Shown piece by piece: positions 4,516 through 41,050 of a stretch of DNA of 54,772 nt. The stretch is from IMG/VR virus record IMGVR_UViG_3300028430_000584; one strand, given 5' to 3'. Within the stretch, counting starts at the first letter, position 1; each line of letters starts with the position of its first letter. Below the pieces are notes generated by a model, which made no database searches, had not been told where the DNA came from, and saw only the letters and a program-made list of their open reading frames with translations. The position numbers and the translations under genes are program-made. Source of the stretch: a virus.

Positions 4516-4805
4516 TCCATGAACTCTCAACTCGCCGCATCTCCCTCTTCTTCATCGACACCAAGTCCGACGCAGGACGCAAGGCCGCAGGCGAACTCGT
4601 TGTCCGCCTCCTTCTCCTGCACCAGTACCCCCCACTCAAGGAGTTTGTATGCCCAAGCGACGTGCTCGTGACCAGCCCGCTGTCAACCTCGCCTACGCCA
4701 CAACCGCCGAACTCATCCGAGAACTCCGATCCCGGTCTCTCGACTTCGCCTGCTTCGTCAGTTCTCCCTACAAGTTCACCGGCTTCACCACCTCAGATGA
4801 GGTGA
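4140..4805 (+). CDS. ERCC4 (XPF/Mus81)-type nuclease domain protein
   Basis: ILIDSREQ ... LPTGDY ... IIERKGSPSEL matches the D-x-R-E / GDY / ERK pattern of ERCC4-family nucleases. The last ~52 aa are S/P-rich and overlap the next gene. Confidence 0.6.
   Translation: MPAEHTILIDSREQHPLPLPSTIHTISGSRSSEGRVIRIHKLVRTLPTGDYSLSCAAPRCIIERKGSPSELCKNLLTDDRARTLAAFDRLSAFPVPILLLECNSSILFKPAAPWTHNPGPAFDHLIHELSTRRISLFFIDTKSDAGRKAAGELVVRLLLLHQYPPLKEFVCPSDVLVTSPLSTSPTPQPPNSSENSDPGLSTSPASSVLPTSSPASPPQMR
4628..4643 (+). repeat. Dispersed repeat copy CCCCCCACTCAAGGAG
   Basis: 5 nt upstream of ATG 4649. Confidence 0.95.
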
Positions 4806-4918
4806 AGTTTCTCATCCACGTCCCCATCAACCGTCCCAACTTCCTCATCACCGTCCGTTCCCTTCTCGACTCCCACTCCCCCAACCCCGAAAGCACCTCC
4901 AATGACCACCCCCTCTGA
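4649..4918 (+). CDS. Hypothetical protein (89 aa)
   Basis: The ATG lies 5 nt after repeat copy CCCCCCACTCAAGGAG, which supplies the AAGGAG Shine-Dalgarno. Non-repetitive translation. Confidence 0.5.
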   Translation: MPKRRARDQPAVNLAYATTAELIRELRSRSLDFACFVSSPYKFTGFTTSDEVKFLIHVPINRPNFLITVRSLLDSHSPNPESTSNDHPL

Positions 4919-5444
4919 CTCCATCTTCTCCCAGCTCCCCTCTTACCTCCTCGACTCCATCCGCAATCATCGCCTCCACCTCGCTCACAACGAGACCACC
5001 CACTTGAAGGACGCGACTCGCATCCTCCAACTCGCCCTCGCCAGCGACAACTCCCCTGCCTACCGCGCCGCCTTCCTCAACACCATCCTCAACATCCTCC
5101 GTTCAACCCACGATGAGGCCCGAGCGCAAACCAGCAACAGCTACGAACTCGCAGCCTCAATCAAGACCCACCTCCCCTCCGCACCCTCGCATGACACCTA
5201 TGTACCCATCGCTCCCAACTCCAGCGTCCACACCCGCCTCTCGGGTGCTCCTTGCGGCGACTACCTCACATCACCTCGTCTGATCGACAGCTGGTTCAAC
5301 AACCTCGGCGGCGAGCTGTACATCGAGTCCACTCCACCGTCCTGCACAGCGTCCTGTGACTGCGGCCCATCCGGCTCTGCCATCCGCGAGATCAAGCCCG
5401 TCCGCCTCTCCATCCCCAACAACGGCGATGACGACGACCTCTGA
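4902..5444 (+). CDS. Hypothetical protein (180 aa)
   Basis: ORF track. Varied composition. Ends in an acidic DDDDL tail. Confidence 0.5.
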   Translation: MTTPSDSIFSQLPSYLLDSIRNHRLHLAHNETTHLKDATRILQLALASDNSPAYRAAFLNTILNILRSTHDEARAQTSNSYELAASIKTHLPSAPSHDTYVPIAPNSSVHTRLSGAPCGDYLTSPRLIDSWFNNLGGELYIESTPPSCTASCDCGPSGSAIREIKPVRLSIPNNGDDDDL

Positions 5445-5462
5445 TCCCTCCGATCCAACTCG

Positions 5463-5849
5463 ATGCACCCGCACGCCGCACACCGCGTCGCGCGGGCTTC
5501 CCCCCTAGGAACCCCACCCGTGAAGATCACTGACATCTACTTCCACGACGGTACCACTCCCGTAGCCGCCCACGAAGGCCCCGTCTTCCTCATCCGCACC
5601 AACTGGGCGAGCCCCGCAGAAGTTCAGGAGTGCGACGACTGGTACGTCTGCCCCGAGCACGGCTTGATCGCCTACCGCTCTTACAAGGGCGAGGGTGACG
5701 TTATCCTCGGGTTGTGGAACAGCGAAACAGAGGACTTCGAGCCTGTCTTTGAGGCTACCCGGCAGAACGGTCGCCTCATCTGCCTCGGCCTGTGGCCTAC
5801 CCGTCAAGCCGCCCAAACCTACCTCGACACCTGCCAGCCTCGACCTTGA
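5463..5849 (+). CDS. Hypothetical protein (128 aa)
   Basis: ORF track. Its stop codon lies inside a reverse copy of the dispersed repeat. Confidence 0.45.
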   Translation: MHPHAAHRVARASPLGTPPVKITDIYFHDGTTPVAAHEGPVFLIRTNWASPAEVQECDDWYVCPEHGLIAYRSYKGEGDVILGLWNSETEDFEPVFEATRQNGRLICLGLWPTRQAAQTYLDTCQPRP

Positions 5850-5857
5850 GTGGGGGG
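5842..5857 (-). repeat. Dispersed repeat copy (reverse; CCCCCCACTCAAGGTC on the minus strand)
   Basis: Contains the TGA stop of 5463..5849. Confidence 0.95.
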
Positions 5858-5899
5858 TCTGGTGGTGTGCTATGATGAGGCACTCATCGGAGGCAGCAC

Positions 5900-6517: not shown

Positions 6518-6538
6518 TCTCCCTACTTGGAGTGTGTC

Positions 6539-8692
6539 ATGGGGTTCATCATCAACTCGCTTGGCCCGAAGCCTGCTCCCCGTTCCGCTGGTGAGAACGA
6601 GTGGGTCGAGTCCAGCATCCAACTCATGCGCAGCGCGGTCGGCTCCACCCGCACTAACCGCTGGTTCATTGCCCAGTCCGGCTCCGGCAGCGCAACCGGC
6701 GGCAGCGGTGCAGGTACATTTGCCAGCCCGTTTCTGGTGCGGCACCTTGCCGACCTCCGCTCGTTGATGGTCAACAACTCCTTTGTTCCGCAAGTGGCGA
6801 ACACCGAGATTCTGCTCCGTTCGGGCGACGTGTTCCGTCCTGACACCGGCAACATCGCCAACTCGTGGCTTGTCTTCCCCTCCCTGCCCAACTGGACACT
6901 CAACACCTACTCCCGAACCTACACCGCAGACACCAGCAGCAACGGCAGACTCGCCCGTTCCGCCCTGTTGCTCGGCTCCATTCAAGTCGGCTCTGGCGGC
7001 TGGACCGCCGACGGGACTTACACCAATCTTCAGTTTCGCGCCGTTACCCAGACCGTCTACCACGTCTGGTACTCGCACCTCGACCCCATCGACGGCCTCG
7101 CCTTCGGCCTCTCGCCCAACACCTTCCGCTGGTATGGGCGGCTGCCTGTCGGTGCCAACCTCACCACCGCACTGACGGCGATGAATAATGCTCCTACTCA
7201 GGACTCCGCCGTTTACGACACGACCAACCAGCGGCTCTATGTGAGGTTCCGCACGGGTCGTACGAACGCCGCTACCGACGCGATCCTCGAAGCCTCTATC
7301 TCTCAGAATGCGGGTGTTGAACTGGGACTTGCGGACAATCACTGCATCCGCAACATCGCCGCCGTCGGCTTCGGTATGGACGCAGACAACGGCGTGAAGC
7401 AGCGGTACTGCATTCACGTCTCGTGCAGCGGCACGCAGAAAGCAGTTGTTGAGAACTGCGTCACTGCCTACTCAGGGCACCACGCTATTGGCCACTTGCA
7501 GACGAGCGGTGGTGGTGGCTCGGTCCTGTTCCACAACTGCGTCATCGGCTTCTGTCAGGGGGATACGGGAGGCAACTCCACGCCTCACGTCTCCTACTCA
7601 AACAACGGCGGGCACGAGGGTATCGTCAGCTACTGCCAGTTTCCCTTCGGCAACATCCGCTCGGTCAATGCAGGGCCTTCCGGTTCCGGCACCTCACTCA
7701 CAACAGGAACCGCGACCGGCCACTGCAACATGATCTACGGCCACTCGGGAGCATCTGGTGCCCCCTTCGACTTGCTCATCGGCTACCGTTGCACCGTAGC
7801 CCAAGACGCGGTGAACGACGGAGGCTCCACGGTCTTCCTCGGAAGTGGTGAGGCTCGCGGTGTGAACGCCCGCCCTGACCACGAGGCCGAAGCTACGTGG
7901 CAACGCTGCGTCTTCATCGAGTGCTCCATCCCGGACGGCCCCCTCTCCTTCGCATCTGGGCTGGGTGTCGATTGCTGCTACAGCGGTTGCGACATCAACA
8001 TCTCCACCAACCCCGCAAACGACCTGCTTTTCAACGCACAGGCTGACGCGGACCCGTTACCTGCCAATACCAACAACATCCTGTTTGTTGGCTCACGACT
8101 TCAGATGAGCAGCCGCCGCCTGTTCACTTCTGCCATCCAAAACAACCGCTTCATCGGCGGCTGTTTTTCTGTGGGCGACAACAAGGCTCAGACCAGCGTG
8201 TTCATCGGTTTTGCGAACTGCGACATCATCCTCGACGGGCGAGCCAATCACTTCTTCGAGTTGTTCGGCAGGTTCCGTACCACGCAAACCACCCGCTCTT
8301 TCCTGCTCAACACCGCCTTTTCTGTCGTCAACCAGCGTGACGAAAACCCCGCCCAGAACATGCTCGGCCTCACCAACCGTAACATCGTCGGGGGCGATAC
8401 GGGCGGTGCCCGAGGCTGCGCCTTCTTCGGCATCCGCGAAATCGACACCGTCGACTTCTTGGGCTACAACCTCACCGGCTCGCCCACTACCCTCTCTGCT
8501 CCCTTCGGTCCCAACACCATCATTCCCGCAGCCGAGCCCCATCTTCCGTGGCTTCGCCCCCAAGTCAACCTTTACGGCGACCCGTTCCCTGTGAACGTGG
8601 TCGGCCCCTACGGCAGCAACTTCCCTTCTCGTCCGAGCACCCGCTTCCGCACCTTCAATCGTCCTACCAACACGCCCTTCTCTCGGAGCTGA
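6539..8692 (+). CDS. Tailspike / depolymerase-like protein with a right-handed beta-helix
   Basis: Repetitive N/G/C-rich turns (NCVTAYSGHHAIGH, FHNCVIGFCQGDTGGN, GIVSYCQFPFGN, CVFIECSIPDG, CCYSGCDINIS) are typical of pectate-lyase-fold spikes. ATG 6539 has GGAG 6 nt upstream. Confidence 0.6.
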   Translation: MGFIINSLGPKPAPRSAGENEWVESSIQLMRSAVGSTRTNRWFIAQSGSGSATGGSGAGTFASPFLVRHLADLRSLMVNNSFVPQVANTEILLRSGDVFRPDTGNIANSWLVFPSLPNWTLNTYSRTYTADTSSNGRLARSALLLGSIQVGSGGWTADGTYTNLQFRAVTQTVYHVWYSHLDPIDGLAFGLSPNTFRWYGRLPVGANLTTALTAMNNAPTQDSAVYDTTNQRLYVRFRTGRTNAATDAILEASISQNAGVELGLADNHCIRNIAAVGFGMDADNGVKQRYCIHVSCSGTQKAVVENCVTAYSGHHAIGHLQTSGGGGSVLFHNCVIGFCQGDTGGNSTPHVSYSNNGGHEGIVSYCQFPFGNIRSVNAGPSGSGTSLTTGTATGHCNMIYGHSGASGAPFDLLIGYRCTVAQDAVNDGGSTVFLGSGEARGVNARPDHEAEATWQRCVFIECSIPDGPLSFASGLGVDCCYSGCDINISTNPANDLLFNAQADADPLPANTNNILFVGSRLQMSSRRLFTSAIQNNRFIGGCFSVGDNKAQTSVFIGFANCDIILDGRANHFFELFGRFRTTQTTRSFLLNTAFSVVNQRDENPAQNMLGLTNRNIVGGDTGGARGCAFFGIREIDTVDFLGYNLTGSPTTLSAPFGPNTIIPAAEPHLPWLRPQVNLYGDPFPVNVVGPYGSNFPSRPSTRFRTFNRPTNTPFSRS

Positions 8693-8695
8693 TCT

Positions 8696-9043: not shown

Positions 9044-9054
9044 AAGGCACTCCC

Positions 9055-9968: not shown

Positions 9969-9984
9969 CCCCCCACTCAAGGAG
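9969..9984 (+). repeat. Dispersed repeat copy CCCCCCACTCAAGGAG
   Basis: 5 nt upstream of ATG 9990 and 5 nt after the tRNA-like element. Confidence 0.95.
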
Positions 9985-10271: not shown

Positions 10272-10486
10272 TGACTCGCAAAGATTACGACGTGCTCGTT
10301 GACATCCTCGTAGAGTTCGACCGCAGGATCAGCTCAGACCGCGACATGCCCCTGTCTGTCGCAGACCGCACCCGTGCCGCCATCCTCAACATCACCTGTC
10401 AGAAGGTCCGTGAGGCGAACGCCAACTTCGACAGTGGGAAGTTCCTCGCTGCCTTCGACAAGCGAACCGGAAAGAAGCCCAACTGA
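10271..10486 (+). CDS. Hypothetical protein (71 aa)
   Basis: ATGA-type overlaps at both ends. ORF track. Confidence 0.5.
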   Translation: MTRKDYDVLVDILVEFDRRISSDRDMPLSVADRTRAAILNITCQKVREANANFDSGKFLAAFDKRTGKKPN

Positions 10487-11742
10487 TGCCACCCCCCACC
10501 CCCACTCCCCAGTTCACTTCCCTCTATGACGCGTCCGACTGGCTCGCTCACAACGGCCTCGTCGCTCGCACCCCCCTCATCCGCTCCTCTGACTCCTCCC
10601 TTGTCCGCAACTGTCCCTTCCTCTACTACCTCGTCCGGCGGCTCTCCATCGTGCCTGCCATCAAGAACTCCGAAGCCCTCTCACACGGCTCGTGGTTCCA
10701 CAAGTACATGGAAGGGTGGCAGCCCAACGCCGAGCCCGGCTCCCCCGACGAACTCGACTCGCCCTTCGTCAAGGCGTGTCTCGACCACCGCCTGACCGAA
10801 CTCACCGACTACGGTAAACTGTTCGGCCAATCTCCCGGCTCCATCCAACTCATGCTCGACGACGAGAAGAAGCGATGCCTCGAAGCCTGCGTCTGGGCTC
10901 AGTGCGCACTCGACACCCCCATCTCAACGACCGGCTTCTCCATCCGTCGTTACCTCACGCAGCCCGGCCTTTCCGTCGTGGCCTGCGAACCCGCCATCAC
11001 CGTGAAGCTCAGCGGCGTGACCACCGCCGTACGCATCGTGCCCGACGCCCTTCTCTACGACAGCATCAAGAAGCGGCTCTTCATCATCGACTACAAGACC
11101 ACCACCAAGAAGCCCTCCGAGCGGGCTCAGGTGTGCCCCTTGGAGTTTCAGACCCGCCTCTACAGCATCGCCATCATGGAGGCCCTCCGCACTCAAACCC
11201 TACAGGAAGAGTACGGCCTGCCCTCCGACACCACCTATGGTGGCATGACGCACATCTGCGTCCAGAAGCCGTCCATCCGCTTCAGTGGCAAAGACCGCAA
11301 CACTGTCACCATCGAGAAGACTCTGACTCGTGGACCCGACAAAGGTGTAGTCCGCCTAACCAGCAAGATGTATGGCGACCCCGTGCTCGGCAACTACCTC
11401 AAACGAGTGCGTGACTGGTACACCGCAGAAGGTGAATACGTCACCGAAAAACTTGAACGAGAGACTTGCCCTGTCGTCAACATCTCCTACACTTCTGCCT
11501 CCTACTTCGAGCAGGATCACGTCATCGCCCAGACCTACAAGTCCATTGACCAGATCAACCACTATGCGACGATGCCTGCCGAACCCGCCTTCTTCCCCCA
11601 GTTCCACGACGGCTGCTGGTCTCACCAGTCTGGCCTCTCTCCCTATGCCGCCTTCTACCTCTCATCCCCCATCGCTTGGCCCAAGGTGATGAGCGACAAC
11701 AACCTCATCATCAGCCCACGCGACGCTACCGACGAAAAGTAA
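10486..11742 (+). CDS. PD-(D/E)XK (RecB/Cas4-like) exonuclease
   Basis: IVPDALLYD ... LFIIDYKTT ... FQTRLYSIA matches the D / (D/E)xK / QxxxY motifs of RecB-family nucleases. Confidence 0.7.
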   Translation: MPPPTPTPQFTSLYDASDWLAHNGLVARTPLIRSSDSSLVRNCPFLYYLVRRLSIVPAIKNSEALSHGSWFHKYMEGWQPNAEPGSPDELDSPFVKACLDHRLTELTDYGKLFGQSPGSIQLMLDDEKKRCLEACVWAQCALDTPISTTGFSIRRYLTQPGLSVVACEPAITVKLSGVTTAVRIVPDALLYDSIKKRLFIIDYKTTTKKPSERAQVCPLEFQTRLYSIAIMEALRTQTLQEEYGLPSDTTYGGMTHICVQKPSIRFSGKDRNTVTIEKTLTRGPDKGVVRLTSKMYGDPVLGNYLKRVRDWYTAEGEYVTEKLERETCPVVNISYTSASYFEQDHVIAQTYKSIDQINHYATMPAEPAFFPQFHDGCWSHQSGLSPYAAFYLSSPIAWPKVMSDNNLIISPRDATDEK

Positions 11743-11782: not shown

Positions 11783-11798
11783 CCCCCCACTCAAGGTG
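11783..11798 (+). repeat. Dispersed repeat copy CCCCCCACTCAAGGTG
   Basis: 21 nt upstream of ATG 11820. Confidence 0.95.
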
Positions 11799-11819: not shown

Positions 11820-12371
11820 ATGCCTCGCAAGAAGATTCGTGCTCGCAAGTCAAACCGCTCTCGCCCCAGCAAGCTGACCGGGCTGCTCCCCGCCAGCCAT
11901 CCTCTGCTCCCCTACATCGAGCACCCCCGCTTCGGCATCATCGACCACCTTCGCGCCGATGTGCTGGCTGCTATCAACAGCGGAGACAACACCTTGAGTG
12001 GGGGGTTGACCCGGTTCAACAAGGCCCTCGCCAATCGGGGCTTCTCCATCCGGGTGAAGCCCACGATGTGGAAGCGGTGGATCGCTGCCCTCGGTATCAC
12101 CACCCGCCGCGCCTTCGTCGCCGAGACCGCCTTCGTCCCCCAGCCTCAGCCTGTTCCCACTCCCCGCTCACCGATCATGCAGCAGGAAGACCCGGTTCAG
12201 CAGCAGTGGCCCGAGCCGCAGACTGCCCTGCCTCTCGACGTGCGGGCTCCGAGCGAGGGAGTTCAGCCTACGTTGCCCGACAACCTCTTCGCCGGTCTCG
12301 ACGGTCAGCCCGATCAGGTGCCGGTCTACGCGACCGCAGGGATCGCGGGCATCAACAACATCACTCACTGA
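11820..12371 (+). CDS. Hypothetical protein (183 aa)
   Basis: ATG 11820 is preceded by GGAG. The basic N-terminus is MPRKKIRARKSNR. Contains a reverse repeat copy read as TLSGG. Confidence 0.5.
   Translation: MPRKKIRARKSNRSRPSKLTGLLPASHPLLPYIEHPRFGIIDHLRADVLAAINSGDNTLSGGLTRFNKALANRGFSIRVKPTMWKRWIAALGITTRRAFVAETAFVPQPQPVPTPRSPIMQQEDPVQQQWPEPQTALPLDVRAPSEGVQPTLPDNLFAGLDGQPDQVPVYATAGIAGINNITH
11990..12005 (-). repeat. Dispersed repeat copy (reverse)
   Basis: Inside 11820..12371, read as TLSGG. Confidence 0.95.
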
Positions 12372-13970: not shown

Positions 13971-13986
13971 CCCCCCACTCAAGGTG
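13971..13986 (+). repeat. Dispersed repeat copy CCCCCCACTCAAGGTG
   Basis: Intergenic. Followed by hairpin gggaggcttgg...ccagcctccc at 13988-14015. Confidence 0.95.
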
Positions 13987-14508: not shown

Positions 14509-14524
14509 CCCCCCACTCAAGGTG
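14509..14524 (+). repeat. Dispersed repeat copy CCCCCCACTCAAGGTG
   Basis: Between the terminator at 14462-14496 and ATG 14529. Confidence 0.95.
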
Positions 14525-18700: not shown

Positions 18701-19058
18701 CCCAACTCACATACTTGGGAGCCGACCTAAACATCTCACTGGCCGCTCGGCCTCCAATAGGCGACGTAACCGCAAACAGCCACACCCACGGGTTCGTGAC
18801 CACACCCCACAACGCCTTGCTCACCGATGAATCGCCCGTCGTCGCCTCAAGCCGCTGCCTGATCGTGCTGCTACGCTCAGCCGGAGTGAGCCGATCCTGT
18901 GCGAACATCGCAGCCATCCCCCCACTCAAGGTGGCTTCACCTTCGAGCAGCGAGGAGACGATGTTACGGGGTGCCGAGTAGATCGACTCGTAACCGAAGG
19001 GCGACACGTCAAACCCAGCTTGGCCGGGCAACGCACCTTGAGTGGGGGCTTGGCTCAT
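15606..19058 (-). CDS. Large virion-associated protein (1150 aa; putative internal or ejection protein)
   Basis: Longest ORF and last gene of the morphogenesis block. AGGA lies upstream of the ATG. Function assigned by size and position only. Confidence 0.5.
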   Translation of the reverse strand: MSQAPTQGALPGQAGFDVSPFGYESIYSAPRNIVSSLLEGEATLSGGMAAMFAQDRLTPAERSSTIRQRLEATTGDSSVSKALWGVVTNPWVWLFAVTSPIGGRAASEMFRSAPKYVSWVSDRFSVFKMLGLTNIRSQLGERVNQMAHRVGAVHDEVLNRPEVKRVFDAETALIKQHGLDPKIGLNWREYTDGDLRKTVARDISTLLHVHRDGMLTNVSPTRLMIDKQTGKLALETRKEVPALLTNKENFGRLVQQYGVDEYIKAVDGLFDMTAKRMTDDPKWLFRMARGTGSANDAFKDIHQLVKPKDKLTKALFARIKQMDPNNPDDVRELSETFVRRFIEDKHYMPRNTRELYRNGEVLDGRALSQEKNVRPSGLVFERSRSKVPYHPEDLAYAARLIDGVDLPQLASQAGDKPARLVRMYKEGNRQLKGLQGEPGAVYRIDSARSIDRYVKDYAHNEAMYMTDVGDLVRAADQQLWGNLKKSGAVVETKETFGDGVSYALPLDEVEKQLKGGVSIADLLGQEYVLAKGQYNRDLISHVVVPHLMGVQESHSTAARGAVLFTKQLARNFSEGVIGDGIRKTGEWGRRFVEKMGQYGNSTDAAGVARTASELQYRVSQTLYSSHLGIPNVGSALINLTQPMLFAGSWVGYGDVLAGYGAAFKRLGGYFSDRMKMGAKVISETERNQLIEKHFGDLTKFRVGNETRDLLEIGESGLQLYEGVGMGRRASAAAETTWDKFFHGTMSLFQKAEWVNRVTTAEAALRLAKRQGLGAADTALFADRVVKTTQFGGHWMDQPLAFLGGSQKVEGVARITSLAQNPLLRQLLSFPTRTLVTAFETVPRLGGREGLTGFTGFLNDMGRAMAMSALMWEVGKETLGIDLARAGMFAATTDAMPFMSQGRVDTRDSVLPLPPIIDIPVAGIKKLYEDGTGAAIAETLPRLVPGGIGFQRMFNVAPELPGPLQAVLGQKQFADWNNRAADGSVPIYREDGTLLRFEEPKRMVYRSLGVDLGAWNQPSQLDNWLVKNRDQIVGYQHEYMRKMLGNDPGGAEGVAREFERRYRLPLTVTRDQWRSFIDARTTPRTGRVLERVNPQIRAQFQQAASQLNPLNLQADPDPDLRQAAIQGMAPHQAYEAMTAYGAQPNGGAGQP
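18918..18933 (+). repeat. Dispersed repeat copy CCCCCCACTCAAGGTG
   Basis: Antisense within the 1150-aa gene, read there as TLSGG. Confidence 0.95.
19034..19048 (-). repeat. Dispersed repeat copy (reverse; CCCCCACTCAAGGTG on the minus strand)
   Basis: Codons 4-8 of the 1150-aa gene (APTQG). Confidence 0.95.
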
Positions 19059-19066: not shown

Positions 19067-19098
19067 CTAGTCAAGTAAAAAGCGGGCAGCCGACTTGC
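19067..19098 (-). terminator. Rho-independent terminator (minus strand)
   Basis: On the minus strand gcgggcagtcgcaagtcggctgcccgc is followed by ttttt. Lies between 19173..19652 and the 1150-aa gene. Confidence 0.65.
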
Positions 19099-19172
19099 GA
19101 CTGCCCGCCCCGTGCCCAGCACTCCCCAGTGCTGACCCTCAAGCCATCATGTAGATCGCGTTGTGGTGGGGA

Positions 19173-27509: not shown

Positions 27510-28040
27510 TCACTTGCTGTTCCCCCCACTCAAGGTGTTGGTGACGGCAGCGAGTGCTCGCTTGGGGGCGGACAGGCAGCCGCAGCCGGTCGCACGCTTG
27601 GACCACGGCCAGCCCACTCGCCTGACCTCCGCCCACAGCGTCCGCACGCCCTTGACGACTGCCACGCCCAGCAGCCACGGATAGGGCACACCCTCCCACG
27701 TCAGGCCCAGCCACTTCATCTTCTTTGGACCCGCCCGTGTCGGCGTGGGCTTGCTCGCGGCAGCCGCCCGCTCTCCGTCGCTCATGGCCTTGCCCACCAG
27801 ATCGCGTAGGCCGGGGTGCCCGATGTTCGGCCACCTCGGCTTCATCTGGTCCACTGTCAACTGGACCAGCCCGGTCCTCACCTCAAGAGCCTGCTGGGTG
27901 CCCGGTCCCAACTCGTGGCACCGCTCACAGAACACATCGTCCACACCCAGCACAAACCCCAACTGTACATCGAGCAGGCCGCACGACTGGGGCCTGCGCA
28001 TGGGGCACTTGCCCATCATCTCGACCGCTTTCTGATTCAT
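27510..28040 (-). CDS. Cys-rich hypothetical protein (176 aa)
   Basis: ATG 28040 lies 5 nt after a sense-oriented repeat copy. The C-terminus TLSGGNSK is encoded by an antisense repeat copy. Confidence 0.5.
   Translation of the reverse strand: MNQKAVEMMGKCPMRRPQSCGLLDVQLGFVLGVDDVFCERCHELGPGTQQALEVRTGLVQLTVDQMKPRWPNIGHPGLRDLVGKAMSDGERAAAASKPTPTRAGPKKMKWLGLTWEGVPYPWLLGVAVVKGVRTLWAEVRRVGWPWSKRATGCGCLSAPKRALAAVTNTLSGGNSK
27522..27537 (+). repeat. Dispersed repeat copy CCCCCCACTCAAGGTG
   Basis: Encodes TLSGG at the C-terminus of 27510..28040 on the minus strand. Confidence 0.95.
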
Positions 28041-28045
28041 CACAG

Positions 28046-28060
28046 CACCTTGAGTGGGGG
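28046..28060 (-). repeat. Dispersed repeat copy (reverse)
   Basis: 5 nt upstream of the minus-strand ATG at 28040. Confidence 0.95.
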
Positions 28061-33387: not shown

Positions 33388-35391
33388 TCACATCTGCATC
33401 GGCGGAGCACCCACGGCCCCGCCAGCCGATTGTAGCGGATTCATCGGACCCTGATTGAGCGTCGCCATGTCCACCGGGCTAGGCACCGCTTCAGGCAGCG
33501 TTCGACCCGAGAACTGAATCAGCGCATCTCGATAATCACCCAGCGCGTTCTGCACATCGGGTGACGCAAACTGCACGACGGGACTCGGCAAGAAGTCACT
33601 GAGCAACGCCAATTCCACATCGGGCCGCGTGTTGTACTGCGTCAGCACCACCTCGCCCGGCGACTTGCCATCGTTGAAAATGGTCAGGATGCGGATCACC
33701 GCTGTCTCCTGTGCCGCCTTTTCACCGTCGATGTCCGCAGCCAAGTCGATGCCCTGCTTGATGCAGTACCGCTTGAACGACTCAGGCGTGTTCACCCCGA
33801 GCTTCAATAGCTCAACCGCCTCCATCTTGGCCACCAGCGGATTCTGGGGAGAACCCTCAGTCAGGTCCACCGTCAACAGATTGACGTTGGGCAGCGGGTT
33901 GTCATTGAACTGCACCTGCATGGTGTCCGTGTCAATGCTCACACCCGCCAGATCAAGCGTCAACCTCGACACCGGGATCGGTCGCGGACTAGTCAACAAC
34001 ATGCTCGCAGCATCAATAAGCATCGAGCGATACACGACCGCACAAGCCGCCGTCAGATTGGTCGTGCCCGTCACAGTGCCCGACTTCAACTTGTCGTCCA
34101 GCATCCGCAACCCAGCTGCACTCTCCACTCGACCCTTCTCTCTGGCCAAGTCAGGATACGGATCGACCGTCTGCATGAGCCCCTGAATAAACGCCGCACC
34201 TCGACCTGCCGCGTCTCCCGTGTTGAACGGCGTGATGGGGAACGGTCTGAAGTTCGACTCGTAAAGGGAGGGATCGGGCGAATGGAACAACGCCTTGAGC
34301 CCCGGACCCACCTGCTTGAGCGTGGCATTCGCGTCCATCGTCTGCGGCAACACCACGCACCCAAACGAGTCCATGTCGCTGATGTTCTGCAACATCAGCT
34401 TGACCATCTTCTCCAGCGACCTCGCGTAGTGAAACACGATGTCAAACGCACCGATACCGTAGAACGACCCGTTCTCGATGAACCGTGCGATGCCGATGCT
34501 GGGATAGAGCGGCACGCCCTCTGCCTTCTGATGCAGCAGAATGGATCGCCCACTGCTGACTACAAAGTCATGGACCAACCCGCCGTGCCCGATGTTCCAC
34601 AACTGCCGCGTAAGAATCACATCCTCAAACATCTCATCTCGCGCCTTGCCCGACCCCCCACTCAAGGTGCTTCCGCTTGAGCGGCTGGGCGAGTGCGGAT
34701 AGGAGTTGGCTTCGTGGTGATCGGGTGCGAGCGTGTCGCCGATTCGCCTTCTGTACTTCTTGCAGCCCTGAAGCTCCTTCTCCGTCAGCTTTCGGTCGAG
34801 CTTCTCTTCGAGCATCTTCAGGGGAAACGCTTGGATGCGGATGAACGACTGCTGCTTGGTGTAGTCGGTCGTGGCGGCAGGGAACGGCAGCAACTCGCGG
34901 GGGTGAATCACCTCAAGATGACCCGTGAGCCCCACGACCGGCAAGTCCTTGACGTGACCCTGAATGCCCACACATCCCAGCGAGGCGAGCACGTGCGCGG
35001 CCATCACCTTGAACGGCCTGATGGTGTTGTCGTTGATGATGTTGTCCACGATCACCTGTGCGCCGGCTCGTTCACGCATCGACCGCAGCGACGAACCTGT
35101 GCGACCCACCCTCGGCCTGAAGTCAAGAGAGGCAAGCAGTCCGGTCACTTGGTCGATCTTGCGGACGACTTCCGGTCCCTGCAACTCCAACCGGCCCTGC
35201 TCGTCCAGCTCGTAGGGCCTGATCGTGTTCGACTTGGGATCGAACACGTCGAAGCGGCGGCACCCGTTCAGGTAGTGGTAAACCAGATTCCAGATGAGAC
35301 GACGGTACGAGAACGCCGTGAGCTGCTGCTGCACATGCTCCTCGATGAGGGCTGCGAGGGCTTCCGGGTTGTCAGGCAACGCAACGTGCAT
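33388..35391 (-). CDS. Portal protein candidate (667 aa)
   Basis: Size and position directly downstream of the large terminase. No motif was verified. Confidence 0.55.
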   Translation of the reverse strand: MHVALPDNPEALAALIEEHVQQQLTAFSYRRLIWNLVYHYLNGCRRFDVFDPKSNTIRPYELDEQGRLELQGPEVVRKIDQVTGLLASLDFRPRVGRTGSSLRSMRERAGAQVIVDNIINDNTIRPFKVMAAHVLASLGCVGIQGHVKDLPVVGLTGHLEVIHPRELLPFPAATTDYTKQQSFIRIQAFPLKMLEEKLDRKLTEKELQGCKKYRRRIGDTLAPDHHEANSYPHSPSRSSGSTLSGGSGKARDEMFEDVILTRQLWNIGHGGLVHDFVVSSGRSILLHQKAEGVPLYPSIGIARFIENGSFYGIGAFDIVFHYARSLEKMVKLMLQNISDMDSFGCVVLPQTMDANATLKQVGPGLKALFHSPDPSLYESNFRPFPITPFNTGDAAGRGAAFIQGLMQTVDPYPDLAREKGRVESAAGLRMLDDKLKSGTVTGTTNLTAACAVVYRSMLIDAASMLLTSPRPIPVSRLTLDLAGVSIDTDTMQVQFNDNPLPNVNLLTVDLTEGSPQNPLVAKMEAVELLKLGVNTPESFKRYCIKQGIDLAADIDGEKAAQETAVIRILTIFNDGKSPGEVVLTQYNTRPDVELALLSDFLPSPVVQFASPDVQNALGDYRDALIQFSGRTLPEAVPSPVDMATLNQGPMNPLQSAGGAVGAPPMQM
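34654..34669 (+). repeat. Dispersed repeat copy CCCCCCACTCAAGGTG
   Basis: Antisense within the portal gene, read as TLSGG. Confidence 0.95.
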
Positions 35392-35531: not shown

Positions 35532-35547
35532 CACCTTGAGTGGGGGG
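35532..35547 (-). repeat. Dispersed repeat copy (reverse)
   Basis: In the terminase-portal intergenic region, 140 nt upstream of the portal ATG. Confidence 0.95.
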
Positions 35548-35629: not shown

Positions 35630-37651
35630 TTAGACGAGAGCGTCTCCAACGCGGGAGGAGTTGGGCTTGTAGCGTTTGGCGGCGTTTGTGAGAACAGCAT
35701 CGAATATCTCCGGGGTCACTTGATCGAGTGACGAGATGAGGGGGAGTCCGGTCTTGGGGTGAAGCATACGCCCCTGCTGAACCATCTTGGTGAGGTCGAT
35801 CGCTTCGGGTGCATCAGCGGGACGAAGAGCACGAACACCCGACTTGATGACGAATGAGGACATCGACACTGCATCGAGTGCGTCGTCGTGTTCCAGCCCG
35901 CCGTCGTCTCGCTCAGGGTTGAAGCCGTCGAGCTGCTCAAAGAGCATGGACCAGTTGGGCTGGCTGCGATAGAAGACGGGAAGCTTGATGAGGTTGTGGT
36001 TGAAGCGGTGTTGGAGCGTCGAGATCTTGGCGTTTTTGGAGGCGGTGCCCATACCGCTGAGTTTGTGGATGGCAGGCAGCGAGCCGAGGTCGGAAGTGGA
36101 GGTGCGGCTGTAGACGTTGACGAGGGAGCGGAGCTGGTTGTAGAGAACCAGCGACTCCTTGATCGCTTCAACGTGGATGGAGCGACAGCCCCACTTCTTG
36201 GCCATAGCAAGGATCTCGACGCAGAACTTGTCGAGTGAGGGCTTGCCGCAGTAGAGGTCGAGGACGTACAACTCGTTGAGCGGGGTATGCGCCATCAAGC
36301 AGCACACCTTGAAGTCCGAGTTGGCGTTCTCGGTGTAGGCGTGATCGACCGTCATGAAGAGGCGGCTGGTCGCCAACAGGTTGGTCAGCGTCATCGAATG
36401 CTCGGTGCCGTCGCGGATGGTGTGGACGCGAGTGAGCGAGCCGCGAGGGTCGGTCTGAAGTTTACCGTCAATGGCCGAGAACCAGTAAGAGAGTGGCGAT
36501 TGGGTTTCAGTGAGGGAGGGGAAGAAGGCACGGGAGCCGGTACCGGGCCGTGCCATGTACTCGGCCTCGAATGAGGGAGTGCCGATCGTGGCTCGGATGC
36601 GCTCAAGTGAGAAGCGGCCACGCAGCTCGGGGTTGGCGAGGATGTCGGCCTCAGAGACGGGCCACATGTCAGGCCATGCCGACACGAGGTTGCCCGCATC
36701 ATCGTTGTAGGCGGCACGGATGACAAGCCGGTTCCAGTAGTTGAAACGGGAGTCGAGAGCGAGTGGGCCGTTGGGCGATTCGATCGTCTGCATCGCGCGC
36801 CAGGCGTAGTGGCGGCGGGAGATGAAGGTGGCAATCCAGCGGATGAATGCGCCGGGGATCTGGATCATGGGCAGGACACGCGAGAAGAGCATGTCCTCGA
36901 AGTTGGCACGACGATCGTACATGGAAGTGGAGGAAGTGCCCTCGTACTCAGCGTCGTCGATGTCGATGGAAATGGGACGACGACCACGCATCCGCGACTC
37001 GACAGAGCCGGAGCGGACGTTGGAACCGTTGGTCAGGAAGAAGAACGCGTCACCCCAAGGACGCTCGCCGCGTTTGGGTTGGATGCGACCGCCAAACTCA
37101 GGCAGCGGAGTGAAGTCGTCGAAAATGCGACGATTCTCGGTACACTGAGCCTTGATGCGAATGCCGTTGTCGATGGCGTTGTCGTTGCTGCTGGTGTAGT
37201 AGGTGTTGGACCAGCCGGGGTATGTGAGGCAGTGCATCAAGTTGGTGATGCGAACCTGCGTGGACTTCGAGAAGCCACGCGGGCACACAATGATGGATGC
37301 TGCCTCCTGCGAGTAGTGGCGGCGATCGAACGCAGAGGGGCGAAAGGTGGAGCGGCCCCACACACGCAGCAGACTGAAGTGGGCCGGAGCGGACTTTACG
37401 AGGCCGTTTTGGTAGAACGACGGATCGAAGTCGTCGGCGGGGTCGGGGTAGAGGTAGTAGCGGTTGAAGAAGTTGACTGAGGCTGCGTAGAGGTCAGACT
37501 GGACGGTAGGGTCGGCTGCGTGGACGAGCCACTGACGGCAGGCGTTGACTCGGGCGAGCCGCTGTCCGTCGTCGTCAAGCTCGGGGTAGTCAGCGGGGAG
37601 TGGGTAGTAGGGATTGTTGAGCCGTGAGACTTGGACGACTGCGGGCGGCAT
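35630..37651 (-). CDS. Terminase large subunit
   Basis: Walker-A-like CPRGFSKST. Size about 670 aa. Upstream of the portal. ATG 37651 has GGAG 8 nt upstream. The ORF track also allows a start at 37729. Confidence 0.75.
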   Translation of the reverse strand: MPPAVVQVSRLNNPYYPLPADYPELDDDGQRLARVNACRQWLVHAADPTVQSDLYAASVNFFNRYYLYPDPADDFDPSFYQNGLVKSAPAHFSLLRVWGRSTFRPSAFDRRHYSQEAASIIVCPRGFSKSTQVRITNLMHCLTYPGWSNTYYTSSNDNAIDNGIRIKAQCTENRRIFDDFTPLPEFGGRIQPKRGERPWGDAFFFLTNGSNVRSGSVESRMRGRRPISIDIDDAEYEGTSSTSMYDRRANFEDMLFSRVLPMIQIPGAFIRWIATFISRRHYAWRAMQTIESPNGPLALDSRFNYWNRLVIRAAYNDDAGNLVSAWPDMWPVSEADILANPELRGRFSLERIRATIGTPSFEAEYMARPGTGSRAFFPSLTETQSPLSYWFSAIDGKLQTDPRGSLTRVHTIRDGTEHSMTLTNLLATSRLFMTVDHAYTENANSDFKVCCLMAHTPLNELYVLDLYCGKPSLDKFCVEILAMAKKWGCRSIHVEAIKESLVLYNQLRSLVNVYSRTSTSDLGSLPAIHKLSGMGTASKNAKISTLQHRFNHNLIKLPVFYRSQPNWSMLFEQLDGFNPERDDGGLEHDDALDAVSMSSFVIKSGVRALRPADAPEAIDLTKMVQQGRMLHPKTGLPLISSLDQVTPEIFDAVLTNAAKRYKPNSSRVGDALV

Positions 37652-38425: not shown

Positions 38426-39096
38426 TGCTGGGCCTCCTCATCCACATCGAAGTAGGTCGTTATCGACTCGGGCTCGTCCTCGAAGAGTATAGCCGCCTGC
38501 TTGCGAGCCTGCATCGCTCGCTCGAAGGTTGCCACATCTCGAATCTGCATGGCGTGAAGAGCGAGTGTGGAGGCTGCGGTGTCAAGCGAGGCTTTCAGGT
38601 CAGCGGGCGCGGGGAGCTGGTTGAGCTTGCGAAGAGCGTACAGCTCACTGACGAGAAGTCGGGCAGTGTCGCGTAGACGGTCGAAGTGAGATGAAGGGGC
38701 AACGTCGGGGAGGGATGCTGGGATGCCGTGACCCCCCGGAGCAACGAGTGATCGAAGTACGAGCTTGAAGGTGTCGAACTCAACGAAGGCGTGTCTTGGG
38801 TGAAAGTAGACAAGGGGAACTCCGTAGAGGGTGCAGAGGTGGGCGAGGGCTTCCACAGTGAAGCCCGTCGGTGCGAGCGTGCGGTGCAGATAGCGGAGCG
38901 AGTAGAAGCGGAGGCCCGGCCCAAACGACACGTAGTCCGCGACAGGCGAGTCGGTCTGGGTCGTGAAGGCGGAGGGGTCTTTGGCGTTGCGATGGTAGAC
39001 ACCGGGCGGTGCATAATGCACCGAGTCATCCCCCCCACTCAAGGCGTTGGGAGGGGGAGGGTCAGAGGACGGGGGGCGTGAAGACGAGGGGGGCAT
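38197..39096 (-). CDS. Hypothetical protein (299 aa)
   Basis: ATG 39096 lies within ORF 38197..39288. The varied central sequence is DDSVHYAPPGVYHRNAKDP...AMQARKQAAILFEDEPES. The tail is low-complexity. Confidence 0.4.
   Translation of the reverse strand: MPPSSSRPPSSDPPPPNALSGGDDSVHYAPPGVYHRNAKDPSAFTTQTDSPVADYVSFGPGLRFYSLRYLHRTLAPTGFTVEALAHLCTLYGVPLVYFHPRHAFVEFDTFKLVLRSLVAPGGHGIPASLPDVAPSSHFDRLRDTARLLVSELYALRKLNQLPAPADLKASLDTAASTLALHAMQIRDVATFERAMQARKQAAILFEDEPESITTYFDVDEEAQQCHPNFQDNCPSSPGLAETLWSIPAEQKSQPPSSTPTGSERRASKTASTKRNSSIRSSPTSAPPTPPSLSEPSPSS
39030..39046 (+). repeat. Dispersed repeat copy CCCCCCCACTCAAGGCG
   Basis: Antisense within 38197..39096, read as ALSGG. Confidence 0.95.
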
Positions 39097-39517
39097 TGGC
39101 TGAGCCGAGCGTGAGGGGGAAATCGGACAGGGGGTTGATGGCGGCGGTACGAGATGATAGGATGGTGGGATCAAGTTGGCGACCACCGCGCACAGGCTTT
39201 TGAACTGGCATAACGGATTGAGTTGAAGCTCTCCTTGCGGCGGTCGCAACAGGCACAACTGAAGATGAAGAGCGGCCTCGGCCCACACCTTGAGTGGGGG
39301 TCATGAGGATGTCGCGGCTGCTCCGGTTGCTCCCGGTGGCTTTGGCCTTCTGGGCGATGTCTTGGGTGATGGCTGCGAAGTCTTGGGCACGGAAGTTGTG
39401 CCGCATGGAGTGCAGGATGGAGAGCTGGGTGGCGGGGGAGAGTTTGGACGAGCCTTCGAGGATTGAGAGGTAGTTGTTGAAGGAGCGGTCGGACAGTGTG
39501 CCGATCGTGGGTTTCAT
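39062..39517 (-). CDS. Hypothetical protein (151 aa), first gene of the minus-strand block
   Basis: ATG 39517 (MKPTIGTLSDRSFNNYLSILEG...). Contains a sense-oriented repeat copy read as TPTQG. Confidence 0.4.
   Translation of the reverse strand: MKPTIGTLSDRSFNNYLSILEGSSKLSPATQLSILHSMRHNFRAQDFAAITQDIAQKAKATGSNRSSRDILMTPTQGVGRGRSSSSVVPVATAARRASTQSVMPVQKPVRGGRQLDPTILSSRTAAINPLSDFPLTLGSANAPLVFTPPVL
39286..39300 (-). repeat. Dispersed repeat copy (reverse)
   Basis: Sense within 39062..39517, read as TPTQG. Confidence 0.95.
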
Positions 39518-39561
39518 GCGGGAACTCCAAAGGGCCAGAGGGTCCAGAGAAGGATAGCACG

Positions 39562-40965
39562 ATGTCCGGGTCAGCACCAGTCAGGGTTGTGGTTGAGAGC
39601 GATGCACCAGCGGATCTGGCGAGGCGGGCGATGGCTGTGGTGTGGGGTTGCACGGCGAGCAAGCGGGGGCTGTTGTGGTGGAAGGGTACGTGGCTGATGT
39701 GGCGCGAGACGAGTCCGGGTGTGGGAAGGTGGGAGGTGGGGGTGAACGAGACGGAGATGAGGGCTGCGTTGTGGGAGTTTCTGAGTGTGTGCGTGACTGA
39801 GGAGCAAGAGGATGAGATGACCACGGTGACGACGCGGGTGAGGGTTGATAAGCGGATGGTGGACGATGTGATGGATGCCGTCAAGGGCTTCAGCTTGTTC
39901 AAGGCGGAGACGCTGCCGGTGTGGCTGAGGAAGCCGCAGGGTGTGGAAGAGTGGGAGTGTGTAGGGTTTGAGGATGTGGTGGTCAATGCGAGGACGGGGG
40001 AGACGTGGGAGCGGACTCAGGATTGGGTGGATGTCGGTGTGCTGCCGGTGGCGTGGGCCAGTGGACGAGCGGAATGCCCCCTGATGGATCGGACGGTGAG
40101 TGAGTGGGGTGAGGGGCAGGAGAGGTGGGTGGAGATGTGGTGGAGGCTGATGGGACTGGCAGTGGGGAATGAGCGGAGGTTAGGGGTTATTGGGGTGCTG
40201 GAGGGTCTGACGAGAGGAGGGAAGGGGGTGACGAGCAGGTTGGTGAAGAAGCTGAAGGGAGCGGGGGCGTTTATGACGGACGTGAAGAGTCTGACGAGCG
40301 AGTATGGGTTGTGGGGTGCGCAGGTGGCGGGAGTGATCGTGGTTGAGGAGGTGAGCAAGCTCGGGAAGAGTCAAGCAGAGACGGCAGGTAGCGTGGTGAA
40401 GAAGGTGGTGGGACGGGACGTGCTGACGCTCAATGGGAAGTGGCAGTTGCCGGTGCGGACGCAGATCAATGCGACTGTGCTGATGGTCGGCAACACGATC
40501 CCTAACTTGCCGGACCATGCGAGGGCCATCAGCAGCAAGCTGAGGGTGCTGCCGTTCAACAGGAGTTGGGCGGGCAAAGAAGATCCGGGGCTGGAAGAGA
40601 AGCTGGAGGCGGAGCTGGCGGGGGTGGCGAGGAAGGCGGTGGAGGCGTTGGGGCGGGTGCTGAGGGAGCCGGACAGTGCGAAGAAGTTTGACGTGGAGCT
40701 GGGACGCGAGGAGGTAGAGGATTTCCAGAGGGAGGTGAATGAGGCGGATGACTTCCTGTGCCAGTGGTTTGTGAAGGTGGGGAGCGGGATGGTGGCCGCT
40801 GCGACGATGTGGGAGGTGTTCAGGAGGGAGAGGGGGCCTGTCATGAGCGAGAACAGGTTCCACAAGGGGTTCATGAAGACAACCAGTTGGGCACTGGGTA
40901 GGAGGAAGGTGAACGGGCGGATGTTCTATGTGGGGCTGGCGATGAAGGCGGATGGGCAGGAGTGA
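39562..40965 (+). CDS. SF3 (D5 / P4-primase C-terminal-like) replicative helicase
   Basis: Walker A is GLTRGGKGVTS. Walker B is GVIVVEEV. ATG 39562 is preceded by GAAGGA. The coding strand is extremely G-rich and C-poor. Confidence 0.65.
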   Translation: MSGSAPVRVVVESDAPADLARRAMAVVWGCTASKRGLLWWKGTWLMWRETSPGVGRWEVGVNETEMRAALWEFLSVCVTEEQEDEMTTVTTRVRVDKRMVDDVMDAVKGFSLFKAETLPVWLRKPQGVEEWECVGFEDVVVNARTGETWERTQDWVDVGVLPVAWASGRAECPLMDRTVSEWGEGQERWVEMWWRLMGLAVGNERRLGVIGVLEGLTRGGKGVTSRLVKKLKGAGAFMTDVKSLTSEYGLWGAQVAGVIVVEEVSKLGKSQAETAGSVVKKVVGRDVLTLNGKWQLPVRTQINATVLMVGNTIPNLPDHARAISSKLRVLPFNRSWAGKEDPGLEEKLEAELAGVARKAVEALGRVLREPDSAKKFDVELGREEVEDFQREVNEADDFLCQWFVKVGSGMVAAATMWEVFRRERGPVMSENRFHKGFMKTTSWALGRRKVNGRMFYVGLAMKADGQE

Positions 40966-40987
40966 GGTGGATTGGTGGATAGGGAGA

Positions 40988-41003
40988 CCCCCCACTCAAG
41001 GTT
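40988..41003 (+). repeat. Dispersed repeat copy CCCCCCACTCAAGGTT
   Basis: Left arm of the terminator hairpin. Confidence 0.95.
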
Positions 41004-41035
41004 TGTTGGTGGCTTGTCTTGTGACAGGCAACCAG

Positions 41036-41050
41036 CACCTTGAGTGGGGG
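41036..41050 (-). repeat. Dispersed repeat copy (reverse)
   Basis: Right arm of the terminator hairpin, followed by TTTTT. Confidence 0.95.

Follow-up and report, generated by a model that had tools for sequence, protein, structure and literature searches.

Known Chi words are 5-8 nt long. The stoperators of Cluster A mycobacteriophages, sites of L5 gp71 that Brown et al. are said to have described in 1997, are reportedly asymmetric, about 13 bp long and dispersed in about 25-30 copies. They are said to lie often in short intergenic spaces by the starts and stops of genes and to be orientation-dependent. The phages that have them are temperate and encode a repressor, and the sites point in the direction of transcription. 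At the level of RNA, in the long-distance interactions of MS2, the RNase III sites of T7 and lambda sib, a downstream complement can close a start or form a processing or stability element. Here we describe a polar word of 13-15 nt in the IMG/VR virus record IMGVR_UViG_3300028430_000584 (54,772 nt; this whole stretch is referred to as the window) and the seven inverted pairs that its copies form. The reading that we tentatively favour for the word is a Chi-like DNA signal.

The Chi-rich phages LLS and P1 of E. coli and MD8 of Pseudomonas carry one Chi per approximately 1.9 kb, and counted along the terminase strand their orientations are 20:3 and 32:0 (PMC12315714). In lambdoid phages the presence of a Rec module goes with few Chi sites (PMC12315714). 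The start-associated sequences (SAS/ESAS) of Cluster K mycobacteriophages have an asymmetric 13-nt word that contains a Shine-Dalgarno (SD) sequence and is present in 11-19 copies, a few nt before the starts of some, mostly non-structural, genes (PMC3203893). The partner of SAS is a separate 17-bp inverted repeat (4-13 bp apart) situated just upstream (PMC3203893).

The word and its inverted pairs

The ends of the window are an exact direct overlap of 141 nt (1-141 and 54632-54772), so that the window is a circular assembly of a 54,631-bp genome. It is the complete genome of an uncultured freshwater podophage-like virus. Scanned as CACCTTGAGTGGGGG / CCCCCACTCAAGGTG with up to 2 mismatches, the word CCCCCACTCAAGG(TG) has 23 copies in this genome where 0.29 are expected, and none of 100 shuffles reached 23. 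This amounts to one copy per 2.4 kb, and the top 11-mers of the genome are all derived from the word. Thirteen positions are invariant and positions 14-17 are biased. Of these copies, 16 have the orientation that is C-rich on the + strand (forward, F) and 7 have the opposite one (reverse, R). The original prediction had counted 22, apparently having missed a degenerate F copy with two mismatches at 52144.

Along the + strand the copies follow the order F F R F F R F F F R F R F R F R F R F F F F F. All seven R copies have an F copy as their left neighbour, at a distance of 32-1198 nt. The original prediction had recognized this upstream partner in 7/7 cases, had given the seven gaps exactly (1198, 191, 100, 508, 862, 239 and 32 nt) and had correctly noted the strict alternation of F and R between 18.9 and 41.05 kb. 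Its R starts are exact, and its F starts were 1-2 nt too low; the F copies of the pairs start at 4629, 11784, 18919, 27523, 34655, 39032 and 40989. A perfect 15-nt complement, claimed there for the partners in general, is found in four pairs (15-17 nt in 11784/11990, 18919/19034, 27523/28046 and 34655/35532) and is 13-15 nt long in the other three.

The orientation order taken alone is marginal (p = 0.047, analytic; p = 0.067, circular label shuffle). Chance, which the original prediction had named as a possible source of the F-R adjacency and spacing, does not account for the two combined. In permutations the order together with a maximum gap of at most 1213 nt gave p = 8e-4, the order together with the geometric-mean gap gave p = 3e-4, and randomization of both positions and labels gave p = 1.5e-5. 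The F-to-R gaps are also shorter than the remaining gaps (Mann-Whitney p = 7e-4). Apart from the pairs, the window has no perfect inverted repeats of 14 nt or more that lie within 1.5 kb of each other. The word and its pairs are real and selected. An origin as a host repeat or known element was rejected: the exact 15-mer has 18 single matches in IMG/VR with no multi-copy locus, and at least 120 single matches in GTDB genomes with no multi-copy locus among the matches listed, as expected of chance matches.

Relatives of the virus place the word in a wider context. An alignment-based scan of IMG/VR retrieved 80 loci with a terminase 40-44% identical to that of the window, whereas a single-protein query had found none. 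These loci are mostly marine and range from 38 to 64% GC; more came from TARA and ENA. Among them are 37 related loci of at least 10 kb (21 after the removal of near-duplicates), and in each of the 37 a lineage-specific G-run word is among the most enriched 9-mers. The words are GAGTGGGGG, AGTGGGGGG, GTGGGGGGA/G, TGGGGGGAG/AC, TTGGGGGGA and CTGGTGGGG. They are 9-10 nt long and occur in 6-14 copies where 0.05-0.4 are expected, or about one per 2 kb. The word GAGTGGGGG, found in genomes of 40-43% GC, is the core of the window's word. The word CTGGTGGGG is E. coli Chi plus GG and is the top 9-mer of three loci (L107, L115 and L116). Within 15.5 kb of the last of these, the E. coli Chi octamer GCTGGTGG is found 15 times, in 13 cases with GG attached, and in the three loci about two thirds of the Chi-type copies are on the terminase strand.

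When the 21 non-redundant loci are taken together, the terminase-coding strand carries the G-rich form in a ratio of 114:46 (approximately 70%). The direction of a gene makes no difference to this bias (84:31 in + genes, 29:15 in - genes). The words of the distant relatives have no conserved flanks and are mostly in genes. They are not associated with start codons, as 17 of 299 copies precede an ATG-initiated open reading frame (ORF), which is near chance. Copies of the minority orientation are closer to majority copies than in label shuffles, on either side (p = 6e-4, in a test that is inflated by homologous sites common to several loci). The convergent order was rejected as a family-wide rule, the close partner being on the left in 27 cases and on the right in 19. 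Some sites are positionally conserved while the word itself changes (KVGG vs ESGE at one site). Comparison of these genomes identifies the 9-nt core as an ancient, strand-polar family trait.

Closer to the window are three lineages with 70-85% protein and approximately 72-78% nucleotide identity to it: lineage A (L032 and L244), lineage B (L029 and L242) and lineage C (L031, L038 and L245). The identical word is found in all three. At the homologous place forward copies have been retained in 21/23 cases and reverse copies in 9/16 (Fisher p = 0.019); the neutral retention of a 13-mer at such divergence is about 0.02. Three losses of a partner were found. The R copy at 19034 lies on a 27-nt indel absent from lineages B and C, where its partner F 18919 is perfect. 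The R copy at 11990 is absent from lineage B (L242). In the population variants L024, L026 and L027 an ordinary SD takes the place of R 28046. The lost copy is the reverse one in 3/3 events, whatever its sense in the mRNA. The same variants also have another C-terminal half of the upstream 331-aa gene (28064-29059; a 304-aa allele), a swap that reaches through the SD of the next gene and looks like the exchange of a receptor-binding-type module.

Reverse copies have also been gained. Lineages B and C have a new R copy in the primase-type gene (codon 159, D/N-L-E-W-G), where the window reads PVAWA, and another in the tail-type gene, where PGPLQA of the window has become APPLKA and the copy is read PPLK. 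Both arose by substitutions that change amino acids (PVAWA to DLEWG, for example). The reverse copy of the sixth pair (pair F, below) is in these lineages in the primase-type gene and not in the 151-aa gene that holds it in the window. Each new R copy is again convergent with an F copy, 1.0 kb away for the first and 1.6 kb away for the second. The first of these new pairs straddles the divergent promoter region and the second the convergent block junction, so that the partners are probably not co-transcribed. The rule that an R copy stands shortly to the right of an F copy thus outlasts the turnover of sites; individual R copies and the cis RNA context do not. Retention and turnover together show the forward copies to be a stable set and the reverse copies a labile set tied to them.

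Placement of the copies and a Chi-like reading

Positions relative to genes refer to our own gene model, part of which was compared with public gene calls. The model divides the window into three gene blocks. An early and replication block of small genes runs on the + strand from 42.8 kb across the map origin to 15.1 kb, and the late block runs on the - strand from 39.5 down to 15.6 kb. Both of these transcription blocks contain forward copies. In 8 of the 23 copies AAGG(T/A)G stands 4-8 nt before an ATG as the sole SD there (chance p of about 1e-15), and these eight copies serve as SDs. In the early block 10/11 forward copies are intergenic. Seven of the 23 copies are antisense to local transcription, six are inside genes and two are directly past stop codons. 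The antisense in-gene copies, at 11990, 18919, 27523 and 34655 and, with the 299-aa start, at 39032, have a single reading frame in common, xLSGG; the sense in-gene copies are read PTQG. This placement looks like that of a fixed nucleotide word accommodated at the least cost. A promoter was considered and rejected, as no phage RNA polymerase was found and the word is too near the start codons.

The pairs are called A to G in map order. The F copy of pair A (4629..4643, + strand; CCCCCACTCAAGGAG) is the SD of an 89-aa gene (ATG 4649, spacing 5) and is kept in L038. Its R copy (5842..5856, - strand) overlaps the stop of an ORF that ends at 5849 and is 43 nt before ATG 5900. Its two copies thus mark off a stretch that begins with the SD of gene 4649 and ends with the stop codon of the third small ORF. 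Similarity to L038 is lost from 4786 and is back exactly at R 5842. In pair B the F copy (11784..11798, + strand) is in a 5' leader, 21 nt before ATG 11820, and is kept in L242 and L245; the gene that starts there has its own GGAGA SD. The R copy (11990..12004, - strand) is inside this gene (11820-12371), where it is read N-T-L-S-G-G, and is still present in L245.

Both copies of pair C are within the first 47 codons of the 1150-aa tail-type gene. The F copy (18919..18933, + strand) is antisense, is read A-T-L-S-G-G and is perfect in the three relative lineages. The R copy (19034..19048, - strand) makes up codons 4-8 (A-P-T-Q-G) from ATG 19058. Directly upstream of this gene start is a hairpin, GCGGGCAG...CTGCCCGC followed by TTTTT (approximately 19075-19107, - strand). 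It is kept in all four lineages and is therefore a terminator inside the late block. Pair D encloses exactly one gene, of 176 aa. Its R copy (28046..28060, - strand) is the SD of this gene (ATG 28040, spacing 5), and its F copy (27523..27537, + strand) provides the last codons (T-L-S-G-G-N-S-K-stop), 21 nt before the start of a glycosyltransferase gene. The glycosyltransferase (26782-27489, DXD motif, PF04488) is within the structural and late block and is kept in relatives.

The 15-mers of pair E are islands of perfect nucleotide identity in variable or unalignable sequence. The F copy (34655..34669, + strand) is antisense in the 667-aa portal-position gene at codons 241-245, read T-L-S-G-G, within a variable S/G-rich loop. 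The R copy (35532..35546, - strand) is separated by 84 nt from the stop codon of the terminase gene (35630) and by 141 nt from the downstream ATG of the portal-position gene (35391). This copy heads a spacer that is otherwise unalignable, and the GC skew of the + strand changes sign there. The forward copy of pair F (39032..39046, + strand; CCCCCACTCAAGGCG) is 10 nt upstream of a 274-aa gene if the start is 39021, and is read A-L-S-G-G inside the gene if the start is 39096 (299 aa). Public gene calls give the same ORF both starts. The reverse copy (39286..39300, - strand) is inside a 151-aa gene (39062-39517), so that the pair spans from inside this gene to the start region of the next one. 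The original prediction had associated six pairs with start codons; 4649, 11820, 19058, 28040 and 35391 are credible gene starts, and 39096 is one of the two starts given by the public callers.

Pair G (40989..41055, + strand) has its copies (40989-41050) 32 nt apart, followed by TTTTT, 23 nt after the gene 39631-40965. It has a 13-14-bp G+C-rich stem plus an inner stem (-54.4 kcal/mol, z = -7.45). By its predicted fold this pair is an intrinsic terminator behind the primase/helicase-type gene. In L031 a different, palindromic word, ACCCTCTACCA, is present in 6 copies (355-577 and 9055), most of them downstream of the primase-type gene, where the window has the motif terminator.

The unpaired copies are all forward and on the + strand. 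Several are SDs. They include those at 9970..9984 (93-aa ORF, ATG 9990, spacing 5), 14510..14524 (187-aa gene, ATG 14529, spacing 4), 45580..45594 (with AAGGAA; 108-aa gene, ATG 45600), 51904..51918 (77-aa ORF, ATG 51926), 52144..52158 (CCCTCACTCAAGGTA, 2 mismatches; 79-aa gene, ATG 52167) and 52407..52421, which is directly past a TAA stop and is the SD of a 55-aa gene (ATG 52428). A tRNA-like T-arm before copy 9970 is not a tRNA, and tRNA and Rfam scans of the window gave no match. The copy at 13972..13986 is 21 nt past a stop codon and directly before a GGGAGGC...GCCTCCC hairpin. The copy at 46339..46353 is 2 nt past a stop codon and before a terminator-like hairpin (46375-46404); close by, at 46413, gene 46435 has a degenerate copy, CCCCCACTCAGGAG, as its SD. 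The copy at 2710..2724 is in the gene for the family-A DNA polymerase, at a place where the exonuclease domain has ended and the polymerase domain has not yet begun. It is read P-P-T-Q-G-V and has 1 mismatch in L038.

The density of the word, its G-richness, its orientation along the terminase strand and its rank as the top oligomer match those of Chi-rich phages and, by analogy, point to a Chi-like signal. In the window the G-rich form is on the terminase strand in a ratio of 16:7, a polarity less pronounced than that of LLS or MD8. It is a tentative reading, and we consider it quite possible rather than probable, that the word is primarily such an orientation-dependent DNA signal, the reverse copies forming a secondary set of opposite polarity. 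We infer that a DNA-end-processing nuclease is the reader and that the reverse copies act at the level of DNA. The window's word would be its clade's 13-15-nt version of the strand-polar G-run word that the family carries about once per 2 kb. A helicase-nuclease of the host (RecBCD/AddAB type) that enters at DNA ends would meet the G-rich 5'-CACCTTGAGTGGGGG-3' from the 3' side. The encounter would switch the nuclease from degradation to a mode that promotes recombination or replication. The forward copies would be the conserved primary set, with their G-rich strand being the strand that encodes the terminase and the late genes.

A word of 13-15 nt would be costly, and its copies would be expected in low-cost places: the SDs of early genes, post-stop spacers, and xLSGG or PTQG protein loops. 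The intergenic position of nearly all early forward copies and the use of a third as SDs, described above, fit such a placement. The seven reverse copies would be held by selection approximately 0.05-1.6 kb to one side of a forward copy, with the G-rich strands outward. The RNA helices would then be a consequence, one of them used as a terminator, and those in start regions (pairs A-D) may damp translation; cis RNA pairing would not be what maintains the word. A history in two layers is plausible, in which an old DNA word was extended in the window's clade so that its pairs can also act on RNA.

Several points weigh against a Chi-like signal. With 13 invariant and about 4 more biased positions, the word exceeds the 5-8 nt of Chi. 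Genes for a PD-(D/E)XK exonuclease and a Sak4-like annealing protein are present in the phage itself. The element T-GGGGG is common to words in genomes of 38% to 64% GC, which suits a co-evolving phage-encoded reader at least equally well. In the distant relatives some sites are positionally conserved, such as those in the terminase and portal genes with approximately 1.9 kb between them, and Chi does not need fixed positions. A Chi-like polarity predicts neither the closeness of R to F copies nor their fixed order, which holds in 7/7 pairs and in both new copies too. Finally, early and late genes are on opposite strands, and complementary early and late RNAs would give the same single-strand bias.

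Alternative readings

The original prediction had inferred RNA duplexes between partners. In its cis form, the C-rich 5' copy of a transcript, in many cases an SD or close to a start codon, pairs with its complement 32-1198 nt later. The helix would sequester the start region, so that translation comes as an early burst, or it would make a double-strand RNase site or a protective end. The predicted helices do form on folding: all seven are in the minimum free energy structures of naked RNA, with mean pair probabilities of 0.84-1.0 and duplex energies of -27 to -31 kcal/mol. Helix formation follows almost by construction from a G+C-rich duplex of 13-15 bp, and the folds concern naked RNA and not translated mRNA in vivo. 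The convergent order puts the SD-type copy 5' on the transcript of either strand (7/7), which accounts for the order rule in co-transcribed pairs. In pairs A-D the 5' copy falls in the range of -36 to +25 around a start codon. What the window's clade has added to the family 9-mer is exactly an SD and its complement. Pair E has kept two conserved islands in three lineages, pair G has a working terminator design, and pairs persist in relatives.

Long-range cis pairing is nevertheless an unlikely explanation for the word. The original prediction had made co-occurrence of partners a check on this idea, and the relatives and variants keep one partner without the other where R 28046, R 19034 and R 11990 have been lost, so that partner loss is tolerated in nature. 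The survivor is always the forward DNA copy and not the SD-type copy. The relocated reverse copies are probably not co-transcribed with their partners. The same word is found in paired and unpaired copies, no covariation specific to a pair was seen, and complementarity barely extends beyond the shared word. A template-switch origin of the reverse copies was rejected, as the homology of partners does not reach beyond the word. The helices are perfect over 13-17 bp, or 22-25 bp at 84-91% in pairs C and F; helices of the RNase III type have approximately 20 bp or more, and 13-17 bp is short for them. The 5' copies of pairs E and F are away from start sites. In distant relatives the word has only 9 nt, too few for a long-range helix, and it is strand-biased, in genes and not start-associated. 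A nested 13-nt helix in pair E (34833/35434) is not conserved in relatives and was treated as chance. Of the original inference there remain foldable helices, one terminator and the persistence of pairs; partner loss, the consistently forward survivor and the lack of pair-specific covariation count against it.

The word may instead be the site of a sequence-specific DNA-binding protein that the phage encodes. The protein could be a regulator of the stoperator kind, could initiate replication or load a helicase, or could be a nickase. This, too, is a doubtful proposition. The specificity of the protein would drift by lineage, and the inverted pairs would be two-faced stations, for example for bidirectional loading or priming. 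The length of the word (13 invariant positions plus flanking bias) is suitable for a protein site, and the drift of words by lineage round a shared T-GGGGG core across very different GC contents fits one. So do the positions conserved in distant relatives and the turnover of reverse copies beside fixed forward copies. An SF3 helicase/primase-type gene stands next to the late operon in the whole family, and the GC skew changes sign at pairs E and G. There is, however, no skew switch at the other five pairs. Pfam, PHROGs and PADLOC scans identified no DNA-binding regulator, HNH nickase, integrase or repressor in a genome in which most genes are orphans. The orientation of the word is not tied to transcription, unlike that of stoperators, and spacings of 32-1198 nt are too variable for cooperative binding of dimers. 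The exact Chi octamer in L107, L115 and L116 would be a coincidence.

More ambitious proposals are a genome-wide RNA code, in which xLSGG anti-SD copies in abundant late mRNAs shut off certain early genes in trans and reverse copies time the switch, or two-faced stations at the level of DNA; that one of these holds is improbable. The station variant fits as well. After resection from either side the preserved 3' tail would end in the G-rich word, with its complement 0.05-1.6 kb further in, and in no other order of the copies could such a tail fold back or anneal from both directions. Taken by itself, a trans RNA switch would set the SD copies of early mRNAs against the anti-SD copies of late mRNAs and silence the early genes, with reverse copies in cis masking or timing the silencing. 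It would explain why forward copies are conserved irrespective of their sense, why the full 15 nt is kept as xLSGG in late in-gene copies and why early copies are on SDs, and it is compatible with the strand statistics of the distant relatives (84:31 and 29:15). Such a switch is highly improbable, because it leaves the in-gene or post-stop early copies (2710, 13972 and 46339) unaccounted for, because a cis partner beside every late copy would quench its action in trans, and because distant relatives have only 9-nt words that are not start-associated.

The least tenable idea, which the original prediction had raised as an alternative, treats the inverted copies as terminal inverted repeats or recombinase sites that bound mobile or invertible cassettes: pair D does bracket exactly one gene, and the segment within pair A differs in L038 with similarity resuming exactly at R 5842, but alignments of at least 150 nt in 17 related loci are all colinear with no inversion, no recombinase or transposase was found, pairs B, C and E would cut essential genes, and the left breakpoint of the variable segment is 150 nt inside the first gene, off the forward copy, so that we give it almost no credence.

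Genome context and comparison with known systems

The early + strand block encodes a family-A DNA polymerase (1581-3692), the PD-(D/E)XK exonuclease (10486-11742) and the Sak4-like/AAA_24 protein of annealing-protein type (12383-13330). The late - strand block has the terminase large subunit (35630-37651), the portal-position gene, a weak match to an SU10 adaptor and the 1150-aa tail-type gene. The SF3 helicase/primase-type gene (39631-40965) is on the + strand. The JGI contig Ga0114340_1000126 is identical to the window, and the window's terminase is present on more than 50 freshwater metagenome contigs. A 25-kb megablast and a terminase tblastn against 50,697 phage records gave no match to an isolate. 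The DNA polymerase and the terminase of a relative have as their best hits among cultured phages partial matches of 23-30%.

The GC skew of the + strand is -0.3 to -0.5 across the early genes, whose coding strand is thus C-rich, and +0.2 to +0.58 between 35.6 and 41.3 kb, whatever the direction of the genes. It switches at approximately 35.5 kb and 41.4 kb, at the R copy 35532 and the terminator pair G. This extreme strand asymmetry is common to the relatives L029 and L031 and is not found in the marine relatives. The idea that every pair is a replication origin was rejected, as the skew switches only at pairs E and G. In the non-coding stretch right of the terminator (41083-41309) are three iteron-like G-rich repeats GG(T/C)GGGGAGGGA with a spacing of 80-86 nt and inverted copies TCCCTCCCCA. 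This stretch is a candidate origin or regulatory region.

Other genes may be of interest in their own right. A JAB/MPN-domain protein (48470-50044) and a ThiF/E1-like protein (50041-51018) are encoded side by side after a 687-aa orphan (region 46435-51018). The E1-like protein matches the PADLOC 'E1-E2' (Cap2-like) models. From their domains the two genes would be a ubiquitin-like conjugation/deconjugation pair in a lytic-looking phage, possibly for counter-defence. A 717-aa orphan (6539-8692) has a 37%-identical homologue (L039-L041), which has the terminase gene on one side and the portal gene on the other in an unrelated phage with a GpA terminase, binned with Phycisphaerales.

The family is a large one of uncultured marine and freshwater phages, with no INPHARED isolate and a terminase approximately 23% identical to those of cultured phages. 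If the Chi-like reading is true, the family protects or processes its DNA ends with lineage-specific polar words. The idea of Chi-rich phages would then extend well beyond the lambdoid phages, and the words could aid the prediction of hosts and the discovery of Chi-like sequences that are as yet unknown. A long obligatory DNA word would have been fitted into a compact genome as ribosome-binding sites and tolerant protein loops, a clear case of selection at the nucleotide level overriding protein sequence. The literature found covers only the Chi case of lambdoid phages, P1 and MD8 (PMC12315714) and the SAS case of Cluster K (PMC3203893). To our knowledge the paired architecture, its conservation through turnover and the family-wide, lineage-specific polar words have not been described to date, nor has a single word that is polar DNA signal, SD and protein loop at once. 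The rule that R follows F is kept through turnover and is explained by no current model, be it Chi, SAS, stoperator or RNA hairpin.

The resemblance to described systems is partial in each case. Rho-independent terminators resemble pair G only; elsewhere, in pairs A-F, the loops measure 100-1198 nt and a U tract is absent. The elements of MS2, T7 and lambda sib are individual, locus-specific and covarying, whereas the window reuses one invariant word that is also found unpaired. Like the stoperators, the word is a dispersed, asymmetric site of about 13 bp. Unlike them, its majority orientation ignores the direction of transcription, and no repressor or integrase was found by Pfam, PHROGs and PADLOC, most genes being orphans.

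With SAS the window shares an SD-containing word that stands a few nt before the starts of a subset of genes and is kept in related phages, here in 23 copies. The sequence is unrelated, however, a third of the window's copies are on the other strand, and several are in genes or past stop codons. The partners in the window are inverted copies of the word itself, 32-1198 nt off, and distant relatives have the core of the word as well, with no association to gene starts. With the Chi hotspots and the Chi-rich phages LLS, P1 and MD8 the likeness goes further. The word is the top over-represented oligomer, is G-rich, contains GTGG and is lineage-specific. It occurs about once per 2 kb with the majority of G-rich words on the strand of the terminase and late genes, and one sub-lineage of the window's relatives uses GCTGGTGG itself. 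It differs from Chi in its length of 13-15 nt as against 5-8, in an orientation bias of only about 70%, in the phage having its own exonuclease and annealing-protein genes, in copies that double as ribosome-binding sites, and in minority copies that are tied to majority copies in a fixed order. Because Chi differs in length, and SAS and stoperators in other features, the system of the window is placed in no one of these families and takes its position among them.

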